Source of the DNA: Escherichia phage SKA49
Length of the DNA: 51,548 nt
Direction: 5' to 3' (one strand)
Sequence record: NC_079180.1
A model generated the notes under the pieces. It did no database searches and was not told the DNA's origin. It was given only the letters and a program-made list of their open reading frames with translations. This document shows, piece by piece, positions 6,955 through 45,100 of this stretch. Each line of letters starts with the position of its first letter. Position 1 is the first letter of the stretch. Both the position numbers and the translations under genes were made by a program.

Positions 6955-6994
6955 ATTAACAAGGAGCATTCATTGAGTGTTCCTGATTAATCTA

Positions 6995-7013
6995 ACATTA
7001 GTTGGATATGAGG
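6995..7013 (+). promoter_or_regulatory. phage promoter-like motif ACATTAGTTGGATATGAGG
   Basis: Conserved motif about 70 nt upstream of gene 7084. Confidence 0.55.
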
Positions 7014-7083: not shown

Positions 7084-7464
7084 ATGGCACAATATTCAGA
7101 TGTAAACACTGGCATTATCGGTCCTAACGGCTTCAAGAAAGACCCAAAACATCCTGACATTCGTGGACGTATTAACGTTGACGGAATCTGGTATTGGGTA
7201 TCCGGTTGGAACAAGCAAGCAAATGGTAATGAGTTTACCTCACTTGCATTAACCATCATGACCCAAGAACAGGTCGATGAAATGATGCGTAAGCGTGAAG
7301 AGAAAGCTAAAGCCAAAGCTCAACCTCAAGCTGCCGCTCAACAGCAACAGCCTCGACAGCAACCTTCCGCACAACAGCAAGCTCCTGCTCAGCAACAAGC
7401 TCCGCAGTCGTCTGCATACAACCCAAATGAACCACAGGACTTTGACAGCGACATTCCGTTCTAG
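7084..7464 (+). CDS. small protein with bacterial-SSB-type C-terminal tail (ends NEPQDFDSDIPF); candidate mini-SSB or SSB-tail mimic
   Basis: Trp/Gly-rich N-terminal domain, Q/A/P-rich linker, C-terminal acidic tip ending DIPF as in bacterial SSB. Confidence 0.5.
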   Translation: MAQYSDVNTGIIGPNGFKKDPKHPDIRGRINVDGIWYWVSGWNKQANGNEFTSLALTIMTQEQVDEMMRKREEKAKAKAQPQAAAQQQQPRQQPSAQQQAPAQQQAPQSSAYNPNEPQDFDSDIPF

Positions 7465-9467: not shown

Positions 9468-9487
9468 CTTCATCAATGGAGCATCCG

Positions 9488-10033
9488 ATGGAAAACCAAA
9501 TTAATCAAGCAGTAGAACAGCTTAAGTCCTGGCGTAGAGATGAAACTTTATTGGTTCGTTTCTACACAGGCGAAACTAATTCTGAATTTGTAGATGCGTG
9601 GATTGATGGACTAGCATGGCGCCTTTATGATTTCAGTATGTCCGAATATTTGCATGAAGAATATGGCATTGAGTACCCTGCAACAGGAACTTATGACATA
9701 ATTGAATCAAGAGATGAAGATGTTACAGAGGTTTGCTTTGTTGATGGCCTGTTCAGCCTACGCAAGTATGACAAATTCAATGAGCTTTTAAATGACACTG
9801 ATTTGTTTGTAGTTCTTGCTGCATTCCGTAGTGGTGAAATTGACATTTTCACTGTGAGCAGTTTGAACGACATGTTCATTACTCGTTGTGATTCAATTGC
9901 AGACTACTTCAAAAATTACGATGGGATAGAAGTTCCAGACCATCTTCGTCCATATATTGATTGGGATGCAATCACCAAAGATTACGGCAGTGACTATATC
10001 TTCTCTGAAGGAGTATTGTTCTTAAATGCGTGA
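9488..10033 (+). CDS. hypothetical protein (181 aa; alternative start 9476)
   Basis: Track ORF 9476..10033; GGAG precedes second in-frame ATG at 9488. Confidence 0.5.
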   Translation: MENQINQAVEQLKSWRRDETLLVRFYTGETNSEFVDAWIDGLAWRLYDFSMSEYLHEEYGIEYPATGTYDIIESRDEDVTEVCFVDGLFSLRKYDKFNELLNDTDLFVVLAAFRSGEIDIFTVSSLNDMFITRCDSIADYFKNYDGIEVPDHLRPYIDWDAITKDYGSDYIFSEGVLFLNA

Positions 10034-10265: not shown

Positions 10266-10334
10266 TTCCAGGCGGGTTTCTTCGAAGTGCCAAGCGGGTT
10301 TTGTGCTCGCATTGGCCTTCGGCTTTAGTCTGAA

Positions 10335-10353
10335 ACATTAGTGGGATTTGATT
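10335..10353 (+). promoter_or_regulatory. phage promoter-like motif ACATTAGTGGGATTTGATT
   Basis: Preceded by CTGAA as in other copies; intergenic. Confidence 0.45.
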
Positions 10354-10476
10354 CTGACCACTTAGGGGAAGAAAGGCATTATACACTTATCGCCAAATGG
10401 GTGTCAAGCACTTTCTTCATTTATTTAATTTTATTCTTATTATTCTTTTTGTTTGGAATATTGGAATAATTCTGAA

Positions 10477-10495
10477 ACATTAATTGGAATTGAAG
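10477..10495 (+). promoter_or_regulatory. phage promoter-like motif ACATTAATTGGAATTGAAG
   Basis: Preceded by TCTGAA; intergenic, second copy in the same spacer. Confidence 0.45.
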
Positions 10496-11134
10496 AGACA
10501 ACATCAGATAAGAGCTTTGTAACTAGGTAGTCCGTCTGGTACCAAGACGTGTGAGAACGTTCGATTCGTTCTACAAAGCTCTTTTCGATGGAATGTTTCC
10601 ATCATATACATTTATCTTTTTAACATAGGCCAAAGGGCCGGAATACTTATTCGCAGAAAAGCTATTCACTTGTTATAGGCGATGTATTGGGATGAATTGG
10701 AACTAAATAAGCAAGCTGCTAGGGCTGAATAATTAGAGGGGTAATGCCTCATGCTTATGTTAGTCATTCGAAAATAGGTTTGTGCCACAAGCTGCTGGTG
10801 CTCTGAGGAAGTCGGACAAACAGGGCTTAGAGTGGCATAATCCGCACAAAATCGCGCCACCAGCTATGCCAAAGCAGGTGGATTGGGTGAATGTATTGGG
10901 AAGGGTTGCAAAGCCTCTGCGACACGCCTGAGCCGCAAGGCGACGACACTCATGTGATTAGCGTATCGCACCCTAACGGGAGTAACCCTTCGCCAATGCA
11001 GTTATCCAGAATTGACACAAACGGTAGGCAGTGGTCCGATTTTCGGCCTTCCTGTGCTACTCTGTGGCCTGTTTCATGGGCCAAAAGATGAGAAGAGAAG
11101 TCACAAACACTGAATCGAAAATTGGAGAGTTCCT

Positions 11135-11761: not shown

Positions 11762-12436
11762 ATGTCTTATCATGATGATGACAAAGAGATTGCACTATCA
11801 ACGTGTAAGCAATGGCTCAATGATAATGATGCCGTCTATCTTGCCAAGGAAGATGTTATCATTATGTGGGTCCATTTTAATCCAGAATCAAAGCGCGGTG
11901 AGTGGCAACGCTACAAGATGAAAGAGGCTTGTCGCATAATTAAAGCCACACGCGCTGGCTTCTCTGCTATGAAATACATCAAGCCAGAGATGCTGATGCT
12001 TGCTGCACAGGAAGAAGAACGTGCATACAAGCAAGCTGTTAAATCTCGTTCAACTGTTCCTCCAGAGTTCTTTAATTTGGAGCGCGCTGGACACTTCAAC
12101 AATTTAGAAATGTTGACACTGTGCCTGTTGCAAGAATTAGTTGGAAGAGGACAAAACATTGAAGCTGTTTGTCTTGGAGAACTCATGAAAGAGTTGTTCT
12201 CGGCAAAGGGCTTTGCTGTGCCAAATCGAACTTTACGCTGGAAATTGTTGCGAGCAGTCGCGCAAGAAGCTGGTGTAGTTGTTCGTGACAGAACAAACCG
12301 ACTTACTGTAACTGGAGTTGGGCGTTTTGTAGCAATCCAGATTGAGGGTTATGACGAATCAATCATCACTGAACTCACTGTCGCTGAGACAAAGGATTTA
12401 GTAAATAAAACACTAGAACGATTCAATAGATATTGA
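11762..12436 (+). CDS. hypothetical protein (224 aa)
   Basis: ATG directly after upstream stop; in frame with track ORF 11705..12436. Confidence 0.5.
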   Translation: MSYHDDDKEIALSTCKQWLNDNDAVYLAKEDVIIMWVHFNPESKRGEWQRYKMKEACRIIKATRAGFSAMKYIKPEMLMLAAQEEERAYKQAVKSRSTVPPEFFNLERAGHFNNLEMLTLCLLQELVGRGQNIEAVCLGELMKELFSAKGFAVPNRTLRWKLLRAVAQEAGVVVRDRTNRLTVTGVGRFVAIQIEGYDESIITELTVAETKDLVNKTLERFNRY

Positions 12437-12465
12437 GTCGTTTGACGAATCAGAGCAGTTCTGAA

Positions 12466-12484
12466 ACATTAGTTGGATGTGGAA
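12466..12484 (+). promoter_or_regulatory. phage promoter-like motif ACATTAGTTGGATGTGGAA
   Basis: Best consensus copy; about 75 nt upstream of the codon-optimised gene 12560. Confidence 0.6.
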
Positions 12485-12559
12485 AGAGAAAGGCTCTTTA
12501 ATTTTATCTAAGTCACGTCACCGTGGCGTGCAAAACTATTCAATATAAGGTATATACAA

Positions 12560-12898
12560 ATGGCTAAGATTGTAACCGTAACTCAGTACGAAGCTAACGA
12601 TGGTTCCCTGTTCCTGACCGAAGCAGAGTGTAATGCACATGACTTCAAACTGGAAAACGGTGCTAAAATTGAGAAAGCTGCCGAAGCGTACCTGAACACC
12701 GTTGGCGCTATCGACCGTTCTCGCTCCATGCAGAAGAACACCATCGAGCAGTTCCTGGCATTCTACCTGCCGTGGGTTGAATCTGGTGAGCCGGAAGTTG
12801 AGCGTACTAAGTTCGATACTCCGAAAGAAGCTAAAGTTGCTGACGCAAGTGTTGCAGAAGCTGCCGAAGCTGCTGTTGAAGAAGCTCCGGTATTCTAA
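12560..12898 (+). CDS. small acidic protein with host-optimal codon usage (112 aa)
   Basis: AAGG RBS; codons dominated by CTG/CCG/CGT/GGT; strongly acidic, C-terminus AEAAEAAVEEAPVF. Confidence 0.7.
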   Translation: MAKIVTVTQYEANDGSLFLTEAECNAHDFKLENGAKIEKAAEAYLNTVGAIDRSRSMQKNTIEQFLAFYLPWVESGEPEVERTKFDTPKEAKVADASVAEAAEAAVEEAPVF

Positions 12899-13795
12899 GT
12901 TGCCGATGGCAAACTTGAGAGACTAAGCTAAATCGATCTGGCATGCACTGGAAGTTTCCGGTGCTGCCTTGAACCCATTCCAGAGTGAGTGGGCTTCAAT
13001 TTGTACATAATTCAAACACCAGTGCATGAGCCTTCGACGGAAGGCAATGTTGGGAAATTTGTTGTGTACAAATTGAAGTAGTTTTCTGAGTCTTACGACG
13101 GGCCTAAACTGCCTGGAGTTATTGCGACTGTTTTATTCATTTAAAATAAATGCAAATGATTCTGAAATGCGAGTTGCGGCTTAATTAAATTTAAGTCCTC
13201 TCCGTGGTCTTCCAATCCCACGTAACCAAATTTGGCGCATTGTGGCTTCGAGATGTGATTAATAAATCGGAGCAATAATTAATTTGTATTCTGCGATGCA
13301 AAGCAGGCTTAAGTCCTCCAGTGCGCGTGGGGATGTGACAGAGTACAAACTTAATTATGCAGTTGGATATTTCTAGAGGACGGACGAGCACACTGGAATG
13401 TCTTCAATTGGTTTAGTGTGAGAAGCTATGCCAATTTGAAACGTAACTCCTTGGGGAAGTGCTCCTCTGGATTTCCCTCCACGCAGGAATCTCAAGCCTG
13501 TGGCAGTGACTTCGAAGCTGCACTGCGTAACCTAATTCACCCTAAAGTGAATTGCCCTGAGCATGGAAATAAACTGCTCAAACCGATGGTATCTACAAAG
13601 GTAGATTAAATCAGGTTGCCTGTTGGTACTTGGGTTCAACACCTGCTTGCACTCGCAAAGTAGTGCCTCGTACCTGAGATGAAGTGAGTCGGGACCATCA
13701 ATCCCACGTTATGTCAAAACACAGTAGGCGACTCACGGATTCTACAAGCCTCGCAGTTCGGGAAAACCTGCGTTATCAAAACCCCCCACCTATTT

Positions 13796-13887
13796 GGACG
13801 AGTAGCTCAGAAGGTTTGCATTGTGCTCAGTCAGGTAGAGCAATCTGTTCGACAGATGTGTCGTTGGTTCGAATCCAACCTCGTCCA
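13796..13887 (+). tRNA. tRNA-like element (possible tRNA gene or pseudogene; isotype undetermined)
   Basis: Perfect 7-bp acceptor stem GGACGAG/CTCGTCC, canonical T-arm GTTGG-TTCGAAT-CCAAC, discriminator A; core about 19 nt longer than standard, with duplicated GCTCAG flanking a 20-nt insert. Confidence 0.4.
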
Positions 13888-13917
13888 CCCATTTTCAACA
13901 ATAAACATGGAGTCCTC

Positions 13918-14303: not shown

Positions 14304-14436
14304 TTATTGCTTAATTGCACAACCAATCTATTTGGATGTTGCAGAAGTGAAAATCTTATCACGCGAAACCAAAACACAGATTCTAGTCCACAATGAAACG
14401 TGGGCACAAAAGTGTTCTCAACTTACCCGACAGTGA
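14227..14436 (+). CDS. possible lipoprotein (69 aa) overlapping the 3' end of 14067..14303 in another frame
   Basis: Signal-like MFRKKCLAVLIAMSIVSC with lipobox-like IVSC; weak RBS. Confidence 0.25.
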   Translation: MFRKKCLAVLIAMSIVSCSQSGFVSDYCLIAQPIYLDVAEVKILSRETKTQILVHNETWAQKCSQLTRQ

Positions 14437-16441: not shown

Positions 16442-18205
16442 ATGAACGTCAAGCAATGTGTGGCTAAGATTAAGCACGATGTACCAGACTGTAAATCCAC
16501 ATCTGGCAAGTCTTTACAGGTTTGGTTGAATGTCGATGAAGCTGGTAATAAGAACTTCTCTGGTTACTGCTTTGCGTGTGGCGTTCTAGTACCAAATCCT
16601 TATGGCAATAATCCGGAGAACATTCCAGAGATTAAAGTCAAAACTCCAGAAGAAATTCAGGAAGAAGTTGATGAAATCACTGCTTGTCCTCCGTTTGATT
16701 TAACCCATCGCAGCATCGAGCCAGAATTCTGGAAAGCTGCTGGTGTCCGACTTCTGTATTCAGAGTATGATGGAAAGACTCCAAATGCTCTGGCACATGG
16801 CTACACCAAAAATGGTAAACTTGTTCGTTGGAAGATTAAACTTCTGAACAAGAAAGTTATGTGGTCAGTTGGCGACACTCAGGGTAACGACCCTTACAAC
16901 TGGATGGCTGCAAAAGCAATTGGCGGTAAGACACTGTTCATCACAGAAGGTGAAGAAGACTGCATCGCATTGCGTCAAATCCTCAAAACTATGAACCGTG
17001 GTGGTGCATATGAAGATTTGGATTTTGCTGTAATTAGTTTGAGTGACGGAAGTGATTCCGTACACAAATGCTTGTCGCCAGTTGCAGAAGAAATTAAGCA
17101 ACGTTGGGAGCAGGTTGTTATCGTATTTGATGATGATGAACCTGGACGTAAAGCTGCAAAAGAAGCGTGTCGATTGTTGCCTGGTGCAATGATTGCAACA
17201 CTTCCAGCTAACGATGCCAACGATTGTTTGAAGCGTGGCTTGCTCAAAGCTACTCAATCTGCTGTTGTGTTCCGTGCTGCTCGTCCTCTGCCTACAGCAC
17301 TTGTCAACAAAGAACTTCTTATGGAAGAGCTTGATGACGAGGTTGAACAGGGTGTGGACTATCCTTGGCCCAAGCTAACTGACTTAATGTTTGGTCAACG
17401 TCGAGCCGAAGTTATTACAATCGGTGGTGCAGAAGGTGGTGGTAAAACTACCTTGTCCCGTCAGATTGTGCATCACAACATTACCAAGCACGATTGGGGA
17501 GTGTTTACTGCATACATGGAGGAAACTCCTACAGAAACATTGCGCCGAATGGCTGGCCTTAATGACAACTTGCCATATTGGGAACCTGCGTTTACTCGTG
17601 AAGACCCTCGATATGATGAAGCTAAGTTCCGTCAAACTGCTGCGAAGATGCTTCGTAACATGGAGATTTGGGACCGCAAGCAAGCTGGAGAAGACCCTTA
17701 TGAAACCTGGGATGGGTTAAAGACGATTCTTCGTCAGATTGGACCAGACATTGATATGTTTGTCCTTGATAACTTAACCTACTTATCGGAAGGGATTTCT
17801 GCGTCAGAGAAGAACGACTTTCTGGGCAAGCTGTATGCAGACATTACAAAGTTAGCAGACCAGTACCAGTTCCACGTGAATATTCTGTCGCACCTTAACC
17901 CTGTGGCAAAAGGTCAACGACCTCATGAGGATGGTGGACGTATTAAGAAGTCAGACTTTACTGGCTCACGTGCTGCTGCTAAATATTCTCATGGTATGTT
18001 CGGCTTTGAGCGTAATAGCCAGGCAGTTGACCCAAACTGTTCTATTATTCGTTCCATCAAAGCTCGTAAGAGTGGTAAAACAGAAGGCTTCAAGACGTAT
18101 TATGACACCGAATCTGGTCGAATTATTCAACGTTCTTGGGATGACTCTCTGTTCGAAACTAAAGAGATTGTTCAACTTACTAAGAAGAACGGTCCACACC
18201 AATAA
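16442..18205 (+). CDS. DNA primase/helicase (zinc-finger, TOPRIM and DnaB-like helicase domains)
   Basis: Zn-binding SGYCFACGV; TOPRIM LFITEGEEDCIAL and VFDDDEPGRKAA; Walker A GGAEGGGKTT; Walker B-like MFVLDNLT. Confidence 0.85.
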   Translation: MNVKQCVAKIKHDVPDCKSTSGKSLQVWLNVDEAGNKNFSGYCFACGVLVPNPYGNNPENIPEIKVKTPEEIQEEVDEITACPPFDLTHRSIEPEFWKAAGVRLLYSEYDGKTPNALAHGYTKNGKLVRWKIKLLNKKVMWSVGDTQGNDPYNWMAAKAIGGKTLFITEGEEDCIALRQILKTMNRGGAYEDLDFAVISLSDGSDSVHKCLSPVAEEIKQRWEQVVIVFDDDEPGRKAAKEACRLLPGAMIATLPANDANDCLKRGLLKATQSAVVFRAARPLPTALVNKELLMEELDDEVEQGVDYPWPKLTDLMFGQRRAEVITIGGAEGGGKTTLSRQIVHHNITKHDWGVFTAYMEETPTETLRRMAGLNDNLPYWEPAFTREDPRYDEAKFRQTAAKMLRNMEIWDRKQAGEDPYETWDGLKTILRQIGPDIDMFVLDNLTYLSEGISASEKNDFLGKLYADITKLADQYQFHVNILSHLNPVAKGQRPHEDGGRIKKSDFTGSRAAAKYSHGMFGFERNSQAVDPNCSIIRSIKARKSGKTEGFKTYYDTESGRIIQRSWDDSLFETKEIVQLTKKNGPHQ

Positions 18206-20205: not shown

Positions 20206-20450
20206 TGGTTGTTGTATCTATATTCGACAAAGTGGACCATTTACACTTTGTCAATAAAGGCGAAGACGCACGGGAAGCTGTGCTGTCTGTAATTACCGAG
20301 AATGCTGAAACATTATTTGGAAGTGATTCTGCTACCAATTCAGTGTATCAGGCATTCATTAAAACTTTATCTGGTCCTGTCGTCAATGAGCAAGAGTTAA
20401 TCTCTTGTATGAACGACCTGGACTTCTCCCTAGTTATCACTCAACTGTAA
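20205..20450 (+). CDS. hypothetical protein (81 aa)
   Basis: ATG overlaps polymerase stop; track ORF. Confidence 0.5.
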   Translation: MVVVSIFDKVDHLHFVNKGEDAREAVLSVITENAETLFGSDSATNSVYQAFIKTLSGPVVNEQELISCMNDLDFSLVITQL

Positions 20451-20466: not shown

Positions 20467-21333
20467 ATGGCATTTGCTGCTCCTACACTGGCCTCGAACA
20501 AGACTCCTTCTGCTGCACCATTACTGGAAGCGGGTGGTTATCCTGCTCGTGTTTGCCGTATTATCGACCTGGGCTTACAGCCTGGTTCTGCTAAATATCC
20601 TACCCCGTCTCTGAAACTTCTGGTGACTTTCGAACTGCTCGACGAGTACATGAAAGAAGTTGACAGTGAAGGTAAAATGGTCATGGTTCAAGACCCAGAC
20701 GAAGATGACGGCATCATGATGGCGAAGAATCTTGAAGACAAGCCGCGTTGGTTTGACTTTGAGTTTACCTATAATGCTGACGGCTTCATGGGAGAGAACT
20801 CCCACATCTACAAATTCGCTAAGGCGATTGATGCACTGGAAGTTAAACCTAATCTGGAACAAGGCATTCAGGGCCATCCTGCCAAGAACCTGCCGGATTG
20901 GTTGGGCGAACCTCTGATTGTTGGCATTGTTCAGTATACCAAGCAGTCAGGTAAGAATGCGGGTCAGGTTGCGAACAAAGTTGCTACCTTCTCTCCGATG
21001 AAATCCAAAGAGAAGAAAGAAGCCAAAGCTCTGGTTAACCCGACTGTCTTCTTCGACATGTCCGAGCCGGACCTGGAAGTATTCAACAAACTGCCAGGTG
21101 GCGAATCTCCGTATGCAATCAAGAACCGTATCACTTCCGGTGTTGATTTCTACAAGACTAAGCTGTCTGCACTGTTAGGTGGCAAACCTGCTGATGATGG
21201 TGCTGTACCGAATCAGGCTTCTGATGAAGAAGTTGATGCAGCTATGAAAGCTGAACTAGAAGCACAAGCTGCTGCGAAAGCACAGCGTGAAGCTGAAGGT
21301 GGTGCTGCTGGCGGCACAGGTATGCCCTTCTGA
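20467..21333 (+). CDS. abundant replication-module protein of unknown function (288 aa); candidate ssDNA-binding or annealing protein
   Basis: Host-optimal codons; C-terminus ends Gly/Ala-rich then MPF; followed by strong terminator. Confidence 0.55.
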   Translation: MAFAAPTLASNKTPSAAPLLEAGGYPARVCRIIDLGLQPGSAKYPTPSLKLLVTFELLDEYMKEVDSEGKMVMVQDPDEDDGIMMAKNLEDKPRWFDFEFTYNADGFMGENSHIYKFAKAIDALEVKPNLEQGIQGHPAKNLPDWLGEPLIVGIVQYTKQSGKNAGQVANKVATFSPMKSKEKKEAKALVNPTVFFDMSEPDLEVFNKLPGGESPYAIKNRITSGVDFYKTKLSALLGGKPADDGAVPNQASDEEVDAAMKAELEAQAAAKAQREAEGGAAGGTGMPF

Positions 21334-43967: not shown

Positions 43968-45100
43968 CAGAAGACGGGTTTGTAAGAAAGCCCGTTACAG
44001 AAGTTGTTAAAAGTCTTAATAACAAATTCATTGCAGCGTTTGGTGCTAACTTCGATGTAAGTCCTGAATCCCCAGATGGGCAGGTTATCGGAATAGTTGC
44101 TGACGAAATCGCAACATGCTGGGAGCAAGCTCAGCAAGTATTTAACGCATATCGACCTGGCGCTGTTGAAGGAGTCGGACTTGATAACGTTTGCGAACTT
44201 ACCAATACTAAGCGATATGTTAATAAACCATCCCAAGCAACTGTGTATTGCGACGGTACTGTTGGCACTTTGGTTCCTGCTGGCTCGCTTGTTAGTGATG
44301 GTAGTCGTCAGTTTAGGCTAGATACTGATGTAACCTTACCTGGTGATGTTACCGTTATCGCAACAGAGCCTGGAGAGTATTACATTGCTGCTAATACAAT
44401 CATTAACATAGTGACACCTATTGCTGGCTGGACTTCTGTAACCAACCCAACAATTGGTACAACTGGTATTGACTATGAATCAGACCCAGAACTCCGAGCA
44501 CGCCGTGACAAAACAACGGCAGTCAATTCAGCCACGACAGCAGAAGCCATCTATGCTTCACTCGCTGACCTTGATATTGATTACATTCGTGTTCGTGATA
44601 ATGATACCGATGCTGCTATTGGCAGTCAGCCTCCAGGCACTGTCTTTGTTGTAGTTGATGGCGGCACAAGTAACGATATTGCTCGACGCATTTATAATGC
44701 CAAAACTGGTGGTGTTCCTACTCATGGTGACATTGAAATCACAATCAATGACTCTCGTGGCTACCCGCACCCAATCAAGTTCAGTCGGCCAGTTCGTACC
44801 CCAATCTTTGTCAAAGGTACTTTCCGTCGTCGTTCTTCTGCAAACATTAGTTCCAATGATGCTGCTGAAAGATTGCGAGAAGCTGCCATTGCATATTTAA
44901 ACAGCTTACAGCCTGGTGATGATGTAGTTTGGTCAAACATGTTTGGGCCGATTATGTCTGCCGTGCAATATATTGAAGTTGATTCGTTGTTCATTGGCCT
45001 GTCTGCAAATCCGACAAGCACTGCAACAATTGAACTCGACATTGATAAGCGCGCCCAAGGTCTGGAAGCTAATATCAAATTCACTGACGTAACGGTGTAA
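43943..45100 (+). CDS. baseplate J-like protein
   Basis: 385 aa, position in baseplate module. Confidence 0.6.
   Translation: MATIQYGVTEDGFVRKPVTEVVKSLNNKFIAAFGANFDVSPESPDGQVIGIVADEIATCWEQAQQVFNAYRPGAVEGVGLDNVCELTNTKRYVNKPSQATVYCDGTVGTLVPAGSLVSDGSRQFRLDTDVTLPGDVTVIATEPGEYYIAANTIINIVTPIAGWTSVTNPTIGTTGIDYESDPELRARRDKTTAVNSATTAEAIYASLADLDIDYIRVRDNDTDAAIGSQPPGTVFVVVDGGTSNDIARRIYNAKTGGVPTHGDIEITINDSRGYPHPIKFSRPVRTPIFVKGTFRRRSSANISSNDAAERLREAAIAYLNSLQPGDDVVWSNMFGPIMSAVQYIEVDSLFIGLSANPTSTATIELDIDKRAQGLEANIKFTDVTV

Follow-up and report, generated by a model that had tools for sequence, protein, structure and literature searches.

The window analysed here is the whole 51,548-nucleotide sequence of Escherichia phage SKA49 (NC_079180.1), a phiEcoM-GJ1-like phage (Chaseviridae, Cleopatravirinae, Carltongylesvirus). 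At 12560..12898 its plus strand carries a real open reading frame with an ATG start, encoding a 112-residue homolog of GJ1 gp29 that we call gp29-like; over 801 bp around the gene, the window shares 98-99% identity with Escherichia phages vB_EcoP_Bp7, Bp10, and phiEcoM-GJ1. The phiEcoM-GJ1 homolog is YP_001595424, and the label in every record is "hypothetical protein." In PHROGs gp29-like matches a family of unknown function, phrog_17419 (E 3e-65). Searches with the single sequence and two profiles found no match in Pfam (E <= 1), NCBIfam, PADLOC, or PDB sequences (the last by phmmer and profile), and we found no functional study of the gene in the Chaseviridae literature. The gene is already known but uncharacterised. 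LC-MS/MS of particles banded twice in CsCl covered 53% of its 4HA13 homolog, AC4HA13_0029 (= QEM43000.1; PMC9699118 Table S2), so the protein is made.

Upstream of gp29-like, at 11762..12436 on the plus strand, lies a gene for a 224-residue homolog of GJ1 gp28 (gp28-like; phrog_13087) with a predicted C-terminal winged helix. About 3.5 kb 3' of gp29-like, a T7 gp4-type primase-helicase is annotated (16442..18205, plus strand). The window also encodes a canonical OB-fold SSB (phrog_7364; 7084-7464, plus strand), with a promoter at 6993-7006, and an ArdA-like anti-restriction protein (9476-10033) that matches phrog_14321. A T7-like single-subunit RNA polymerase is encoded at 331-2445 on the plus strand (CAI 0.64); it has only 704 residues, T7 RNA polymerase having about 880, and the SA91KD record gives an even shorter polymerase that matches the C-terminus of the GJ1 polymerase only.

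Transcription unit and codon usage

The gp29-like gene has its own promoter. A consensus copy of the promoter for the T7-like phage RNA polymerase lies at 12460..12482 on the plus strand and is annotated at the homologous place in phiEcoM-GJ1, as "promoter 7," and in SA91KD; its sequence, TCTGAAACATTAGTTGGA, occupies 12460-12477, 82 nt 5' of the gp29-like ATG. Allowing up to two mismatches, the core AAACATTAGTTGGA occurs on the plus strand at 2560, 6993, 10333, 10475, 12132, 12464, and 20308, with an extra copy at 44842 that is probably due to chance. Of the seven, only the copy at 12464 matches the position-wise majority exactly, making it fair to place the gene downstream of the "best promoter copy," as a preliminary description had done. 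This promoter is kept in 4HA13 and Myduc.

Untranslated regions flank the gene on both sides. Folding and comparison define a 5' UTR of ~77 nt (12483..12559, plus strand) with two small hairpins, a TTAATTTTAT box, and a Shine-Dalgarno AAGG (12547-12550). The hairpins are no better than those of shuffled sequences (z -0.7); the TTAATTTTAT box is also kept in 4HA13 and Myduc, and the Shine-Dalgarno context and start, ATATAAGGT...ATGGCT, are invariant in three genera. The 3' UTR (12896..12999, plus strand) folds into three stable hairpins (12896-12917, 12940-12968, and 12969-12999) with an MFE of -40.6 kcal/mol (z -3.6) that none of 200 shuffles equalled. It contains a terminator-like site at 12974-12993, and SA91KD has a terminator annotated at the homologous place; the hairpins are probably a transcription terminator or an RNA-stabilising end. 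Promoter, Shine-Dalgarno, and 3' hairpins are all conserved across the three genera. Because the gene has its own promoter and 3' hairpins, and because annotated terminators flank the SA91KD homolog on both sides, we conclude that gp29-like is a monocistronic, insulated, high-output unit.

The ~900 bp that follow, between the gp29-like gene and a tRNA gene (12899-13790), are apparently non-coding and strongly structured, and include a 17-nt inverted repeat (12994-13010 / 13062-13078, 94% complementary); an Rfam search of 12899-13790 found no family. ARAGORN identifies the tRNA as a 97-nt tRNA-Leu with anticodon CAG at 13795-13891 on the plus strand (Rfam tRNA, 45 bits). The phiEcoM-GJ1 record labels the homologous gene tRNA-Arg and adds that it "may contain an intron."

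Codon usage sets gp29-like apart from the rest of the genome. We derived CAI weights from 23 E. coli K-12 ribosomal-protein genes and scored the 71 plus-strand genes of the window. At 0.807, gp29-like ranked first (mean 0.418, sd 0.114, z about 3.4), above the major capsid protein (0.757), head protein (0.694), and tail sheath (0.649), and inside the range of the ribosomal-protein genes themselves (0.59-0.81). Adjoining genes scored 0.30-0.46, bearing out the earlier remark that the gene is host-optimal where its neighbours are not. The choice of codons is near-uniform: Leu is CTG (6/6), Pro CCG (4/4), Phe TTC (6/6), and Tyr TAC (3/3), while Arg uses CGT or CGC only and Gly GGT or GGC only. 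All six Leu codons can be compared with the tRNA-Leu (CAG) of the window. The effective number of codons, 32.3, also ranks first. The homolog from Proteus phage Myduc (56% identity) ranks first of 62 by two measures, one using the E. coli weights and the other weights from Myduc's own capsid, sheath, and head genes. In more distant loci carrying a member of the family, the effective number of codons places the family gene first in three of five and mid-table in two, so high expression across the family is only suggested.

Top-ranking CAI, a dedicated consensus promoter, and a Shine-Dalgarno and 3' hairpins conserved across genera uphold the proposal that expression is very high. We conclude that gp29-like is a genuine small phage protein, expressed at a very high level and without an assigned function. 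The conserved top-rank codon adaptation of its gene appears to be new, as we found no paper on it.

Expression at this level invites the reading that gp29-like is virion-associated, whether as a structural, decoration, scaffold, or packaged protein, given its capsid-like codon adaptation and the 53% coverage of the 4HA13 homolog in twice CsCl-banded particles (PMC9699118). We consider this highly improbable: non-structural SSB was recovered from the same preparation at 62% coverage, making carry-over likely, the homolog falls outside the twelve most abundant proteins of Figure 7 in that study (PMC9699118), and the gene is remote from the structural module, neighbouring replication genes in all relatives.

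Protein family and gene neighbourhood

An AlphaFold2 model built from an alignment of 47 sequences predicts a small folded domain followed by a disordered tail. Mean pLDDT is 74, reaching 80-88 over residues 11-80 and falling to about 48-57 in the tail. The predicted elements are a β-hairpin (10-18), two helices (21-48 and 52-74) forming an α-hairpin, an extended, conserved VERTxFDTPK segment (80-89), and the disordered tail (91-112). Across the 47 homologs the N-domain (residues 1-90) is strongly conserved, while the tail varies in sequence and keeps its acidic composition. Invariant residues are Y10, A12, D14-G15-S16, F18, H27, F29, L31, N33, I37, N46, D52-R53-S54-R55, N60, F65-L66, G76, E81-R82, D86, and K89. 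The 85 homologs, of 101-168 residues, are all unnamed, hypothetical, or uncharacterized, and lie mostly on ~53-kb contigs.

Searching the N-domain profile against 1.84 billion representative proteins retrieved 37 proteins, including distant members of 76-150 residues (25-35% identity) that keep the motifs DG..F...EA.AH, N, [DG]R.R, and ERTvFD. A viral-contig search with two single remote proteins gave no confirmed loci. Residues 8-28 of gp29-like form a unit, xYxxxDGxxFxxxxEAxxH, that resembles a zinc-less ββα finger and for which Pfam has no model. The same unit occurs in tandem, in 5 to 10 or more copies, in the large surface proteins P0099, which carries S-layer-homology domains, and P0105, in which the repeats are mixed with sequences resembling real C2H2 fingers.

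The family gene keeps constant company. A gp28-like homolog is the open reading frame directly upstream in all seven remote loci (hmmsearch E 3e-39 to 3e-07; homology was assessed by hmmsearch and also BLASTP), and also directly upstream in Myduc. In the phage database gp28-like matches 107 records and gp29-like, with the window protein as query, 79; a remote-member query adds Aeromonas, Shewanella, and Vibrio chaseviruses to the gp29-like matches. Judged by these sequence matches, the two genes are a core gene pair of the family. The two differ in codon usage, with a low CAI of 0.34 for gp28-like. A consensus-like promoter copy lies inside the gp28-like reading frame (12132-12145), with a perfect copy in Myduc at 14364-14377. 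Just 3' of this internal promoter is a weak 29-nt direct repeat (12333-12361 / 12424-12452); iteron-like repeats around the gp28-like and gp29 genes amount to weak two-copy families only.

Beyond the pair lies the replicative helicase. The remote family gene lies upstream of the primase-helicase, with a gap of 10 bp in loci L015-17 and 11 bp in L022; in L009, L011/12, L018, L024, and L025 the gap amounts to one or a few genes. Pol A follows beyond the primase-helicase wherever a remote contig reaches that far. The window and seven remote contexts thus share a T7 gp2.5-like placement, upstream of a gp4-type primase-helicase and Pol A. An SPP1-like order of DNA-binding gene, small gene, and helicase is found in the remote loci, while in the Chaseviridae ~3.5 kb separate gp29-like from the helicase and the gene has a transcription unit to itself. 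The pairing of a winged-helix gene with an acidic-tail gene ahead of T7-type primase-helicases appears to be new; we found no paper on it. On L022, a 7.1-kb JGI contig (3300029265), 11 bp separate a distant member, accompanied by a shortened gp28-like gene, from the DnaB-type helicase that follows; RepL and ParA/CbiA genes are also present, and the contig may be a phage-plasmid.

Two further features of the window touch on replication. Two phage promoters stand in tandem at 10333 and 10475, at a spacing of 142 bp, and the ~650 bp after them hold no convincing open reading frame (10329-11130). This layout resembles the T7 phi1.1A/1.1B primary origin, and the region could be the replication origin. 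Following Pol A, with its own promoter at 20308-20321, is a gene for a 288-residue GJ1 gp39-like protein (20467-21333, plus strand; phrog_862, function unknown; CAI 0.63). It scores below threshold against the NCBIfam NGO0469 phage replication initiation family (E 2.8e-16, 59.6 bits, cut-off 75), and ends in GMPF, or GGQPF in Myduc. We also considered whether it is a homolog of the protein that follows Pol A in L015; the comparison found no homology.

Acidity and the C-terminal tail

The protein had been described as strongly acidic. Its pI of 4.49 and net charge of about -10 (21 D+E against 11 K+R) support acidity as such; the emphasis was overstated, because among 71 window proteins gp29-like has only the fifth-lowest pI and comes third when net charge is taken per residue; the ArdA-like protein, at pI 4.14, exceeds it in acidity. 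Overall composition is 19% D+E and 10% K+R, and the folded domain holds 16 acidic and 10 basic residues in 90.

These values bear on the preliminary proposal of an Ocr-like dsDNA mimic, or other anti-defence protein, that blocks restriction enzymes or DNA-binding defence systems. The protein is indeed acidic, small, and highly expressed, novel folds are common among anti-defence proteins, and in L011/L012 the family member directly adjoins an ArdA gene. Ocr has a charge density far above that of the gp29-like folded domain. The model of gp29-like differs from the all-helical elongated dimer with which Ocr mimics bent B-DNA, and its mildly acidic folded domain departs from the extreme carboxylate density and very few basic residues of Ocr. 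Neither fold nor sequence resembles any solved DNA mimic, gp29-like matches neither the ArdA profile (PF07275) nor any other Pfam or PADLOC entry, and the phage already carries a separate ArdA-like gene, to which the phrog_14321 match belongs. The gene is under a phage-RNA-polymerase promoter and not at a first-entering early position. Unlike anti-defence cargo, which is typically variable, it belongs to the core genes of ~107 genomes from many hosts, with its partner and its synteny with replication genes both conserved. On this evidence an anti-restriction role is very unlikely, which corrects a tempting mis-annotation of the gene as Ocr-like. Mimicry in a narrower sense, that of a tail competing with ssDNA, may survive, because SSB and T7 gp2.5 have acidic Phe-ended tails that are known to act as tethers competing with ssDNA.

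High abundance and a place in the replication module would also suit an architectural protein associated with nucleic acid, comparable to phi29 p6 or p5, one that coats phage DNA or ssDNA, or organises a replication compartment, with the tail regulating it. The abundance is at the level of structural proteins, invariant Arg, Asn, and aromatic residues cluster at the hairpin tip (N46, D52-R53-S54-R55, and N60), and the protein contains the ββα finger-like unit. Yet the folded domain is net negative, no nucleic-acid-binding fold was detected in gp29-like, and the phage already encodes a canonical OB-fold SSB; we regard an architectural role as improbable.

The tail itself is as first described, Ala/Glu-rich and closed by Phe: residues 91-112, AKVADASVAEAAEAAVEEAPVF, contain 9 Ala, 4 Glu, and the final F. 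Among close homologs the terminal Phe is present in 81 of 82, preceded by V, L, or M at position -2 in 70/82 and by P at position -3 in 47/82. The tails, ~20-45 residues long, are hypervariable in sequence and length, yet always rich in Ala, Glu, Val, and Asp and nearly free of basic residues, with an average past DTPK of 9.7 acidic and 2.1 basic residues (82 homologs). Most distant members likewise close with acidic sequence in which Phe is the last residue or nearly so (EDDLF, EEDMF, EDELF, DDSLFL, EDDFL, ADLSDFS, and EDLFAAE), and F falls within the last four residues in 27 of 41 remote members; in several, residues follow the Phe (FAAE, FL, FS, and FAG). The protein therefore has the SSB-type feature of a disordered acidic C-terminal tail with a conserved hydrophobic-Phe tip. 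Its invariant terminal Phe appears not to have been reported before, as no paper on it was found.

The phage SSB has such a tip as well, ending in DFDSDIPF (PPMDFDDDIPF in Myduc). These tips are of the canonical enterobacterial type, implying that the phage SSB engages the interaction network of the host SSB. A consensus-like promoter stands directly in front of three Phe-ended genes, SSB (DIPF), gp29-like (PVF), and gp39-like (MPF), and this shared pattern among three replication-linked genes hints at a common tail-docking logic.

A tail of this kind might instead serve as a decoy, with gp29-like a host-takeover factor that competes with host SSB tails for exonuclease I, RecQ, RecJ, PriA, Pol III chi and the like, or for the β-clamp, so that host replication and repair are shut down or phage ssDNA intermediates are protected. 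This is the main rival to a replication role, and we judge it unlikely. Expression at or above capsid level suits titration of an abundant host target, takeover genes such as that for ArdA share its early/middle region, and the tail resembles SSB tips, the EDSIPF end of remote member P0118 being nearly the DSDIPF of the phage SSB. However, the phages bear the exact host motif on their own SSB, while the tips of close gp29-like homologs consistently read P-[VLM]-F; their Pro is set back from the C-terminus by one more position and Asp is scarce beside it, which suggests a different pocket. Remote members with residues past the Phe could not use carboxylate-dependent SSB-tip pockets, and a decoy leaves the strict winged-helix pairing and helicase adjacency unexplained. 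The protein could still be another abundant host-takeover factor.

A candidate replication adaptor and its likeness to known systems

Conserved neighbours and the acidic Phe-ended tail point to a role in phage DNA replication. We propose, with a probability of roughly 40%, that gp29-like is an abundant, non-enzymatic accessory or adaptor protein of the T7-type DNA-replication module; we infer this role, and every binding step in it, from the expression signals, predicted architecture, tail tip, gene pair, and synteny. E. coli SSB, T7 gp2.5, and T7 gp4 dock on replication proteins through acidic tails that end in Phe. In a comparable arrangement, the N-domain of gp29-like, with its zinc-less ββα unit running into the α-hairpin and its VERTxFDTPK segment, would bind a phage partner, most likely the co-inherited winged-helix gp28-like protein, the primase-helicase, or both. 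The disordered acidic tail would be a flexible tether, and its hydrophobic-Phe tip could dock in a pocket of Pol A or the helicase or in an ssDNA-binding cleft. With gp28-like as initiator and gp29-like as adaptor, the two would act as a pair ahead of the helicase.

Several observations count against an adaptor. Its main weakness is abundance: expression at or above capsid level far exceeds what a helicase loader or initiator partner needs, and, because the CAI of gp28-like is 0.34 against 0.807, the stoichiometry of the pair would be grossly unequal. The same abundance keeps the decoy and architectural readings alive. In the Chaseviridae the 3.5 kb to the helicase and the solitary transcription of the gene also speak against it, T7-type gp4 helicases are generally thought to self-load, and the residues past the Phe in several remote members do not fit docking that strictly depends on the C-terminal carboxylate. 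The presence of the 4HA13 homolog in CsCl-purified virions is a further objection, although it may be carry-over, as for SSB.

A more ambitious form of the adaptor proposal is possible but doubtful: gp28-like and gp29-like may constitute an unrecognised two-protein origin/helicase-coupling system for T7-type primase-helicases, or the adaptor may also serve as a decoy and rewire the host SSB interactome. In the coupling system a hyper-abundant adaptor with an SSB-like acidic Phe tail would partner a winged-helix initiator; in T7 the tail that docks on polymerase or SSB is part of gp4 and gp2.5 themselves, and here the adaptor would provide it in trans.

The most codon-optimised gene of the whole Chaseviridae family (~107 sequenced genomes) has no assigned function. 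These phages infect Escherichia, Erwinia, Yersinia, Pectobacterium, Proteus, Aeromonas, Shewanella, and Vibrio, and several are under development for biocontrol. If gp29-like is a replisome adaptor or tail decoy, it would represent a new small-protein solution for assembling or coupling T7-type replisomes and a further case of the SSB docking code of acidic tail plus terminal Phe, and its compact peptide motif and partner pocket could be tested as a replication inhibitor.

Among known systems, T7 Ocr (gp0.3) and ArdA resemble gp29-like in being small, acidic, and abundantly expressed, but differ in fold, charge density, promoter class, genome position, and conserved synteny. The phi29 proteins p6 and p5 are abundant small replication-associated DNA-binding proteins, and the C-terminal end of p6 is acidic. 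Like gp29-like they are of about 100-120 residues, extremely abundant, and encoded among replication genes; they differ in that homology is undetectable and the gp29-like folded domain is net acidic.

The nearest parallel in gene order is with SPP1 G38P-G39P-G40P and lambda O-P, where a DNA-binding protein, a small protein, and the replicative helicase follow one another, as in the remote loci. G39P, described in part by work cited in PMC11087808, is of similar size (126 residues, against about 110-140 in this family), and it shares with gp29-like a helical N-domain and an unfolded C-terminal region. Homology to G39P was considered and rejected, as neither sequence nor fold matched (PDB 1NO1; Pfam Inhibitor_G39P). 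The Pfam model Inhibitor_G39P is presumably the one that covers PDB 1NO1. DnaC, lambda P, and DciA likewise gave no sequence or fold match to gp29-like.

The tail finds its closest likeness in SSB and the T7 replisome. An OB-fold SSB identity for gp29-like was itself rejected, since AlphaFold2 gives a β-hairpin and two long helices and there is no Pfam or NCBIfam SSB match; T7 gp2.5 gave no PDB sequence match (phmmer and profile) and no fold match. In contrast to the OB fold of SSBs, gp29-like has its predicted β-hairpin and α-hairpin, alongside a separate canonical SSB in the same phage, and it ends in P-[VLM]-F or ED-[LM]-F instead of DDDIPF or DF. T7 gp2.5 and gp4 are both Phe-terminated. 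E. coli SSB (...DDDIPF), T7 gp2.5, and T7 gp4 nevertheless have, like gp29-like, a disordered acidic C-terminus whose last residue is a Phe after a hydrophobic residue; SSBs, too, are very highly expressed; and T7 gene 2.5, like the gp29-like gene, lies upstream of the primase-helicase in a T7-type replication module.
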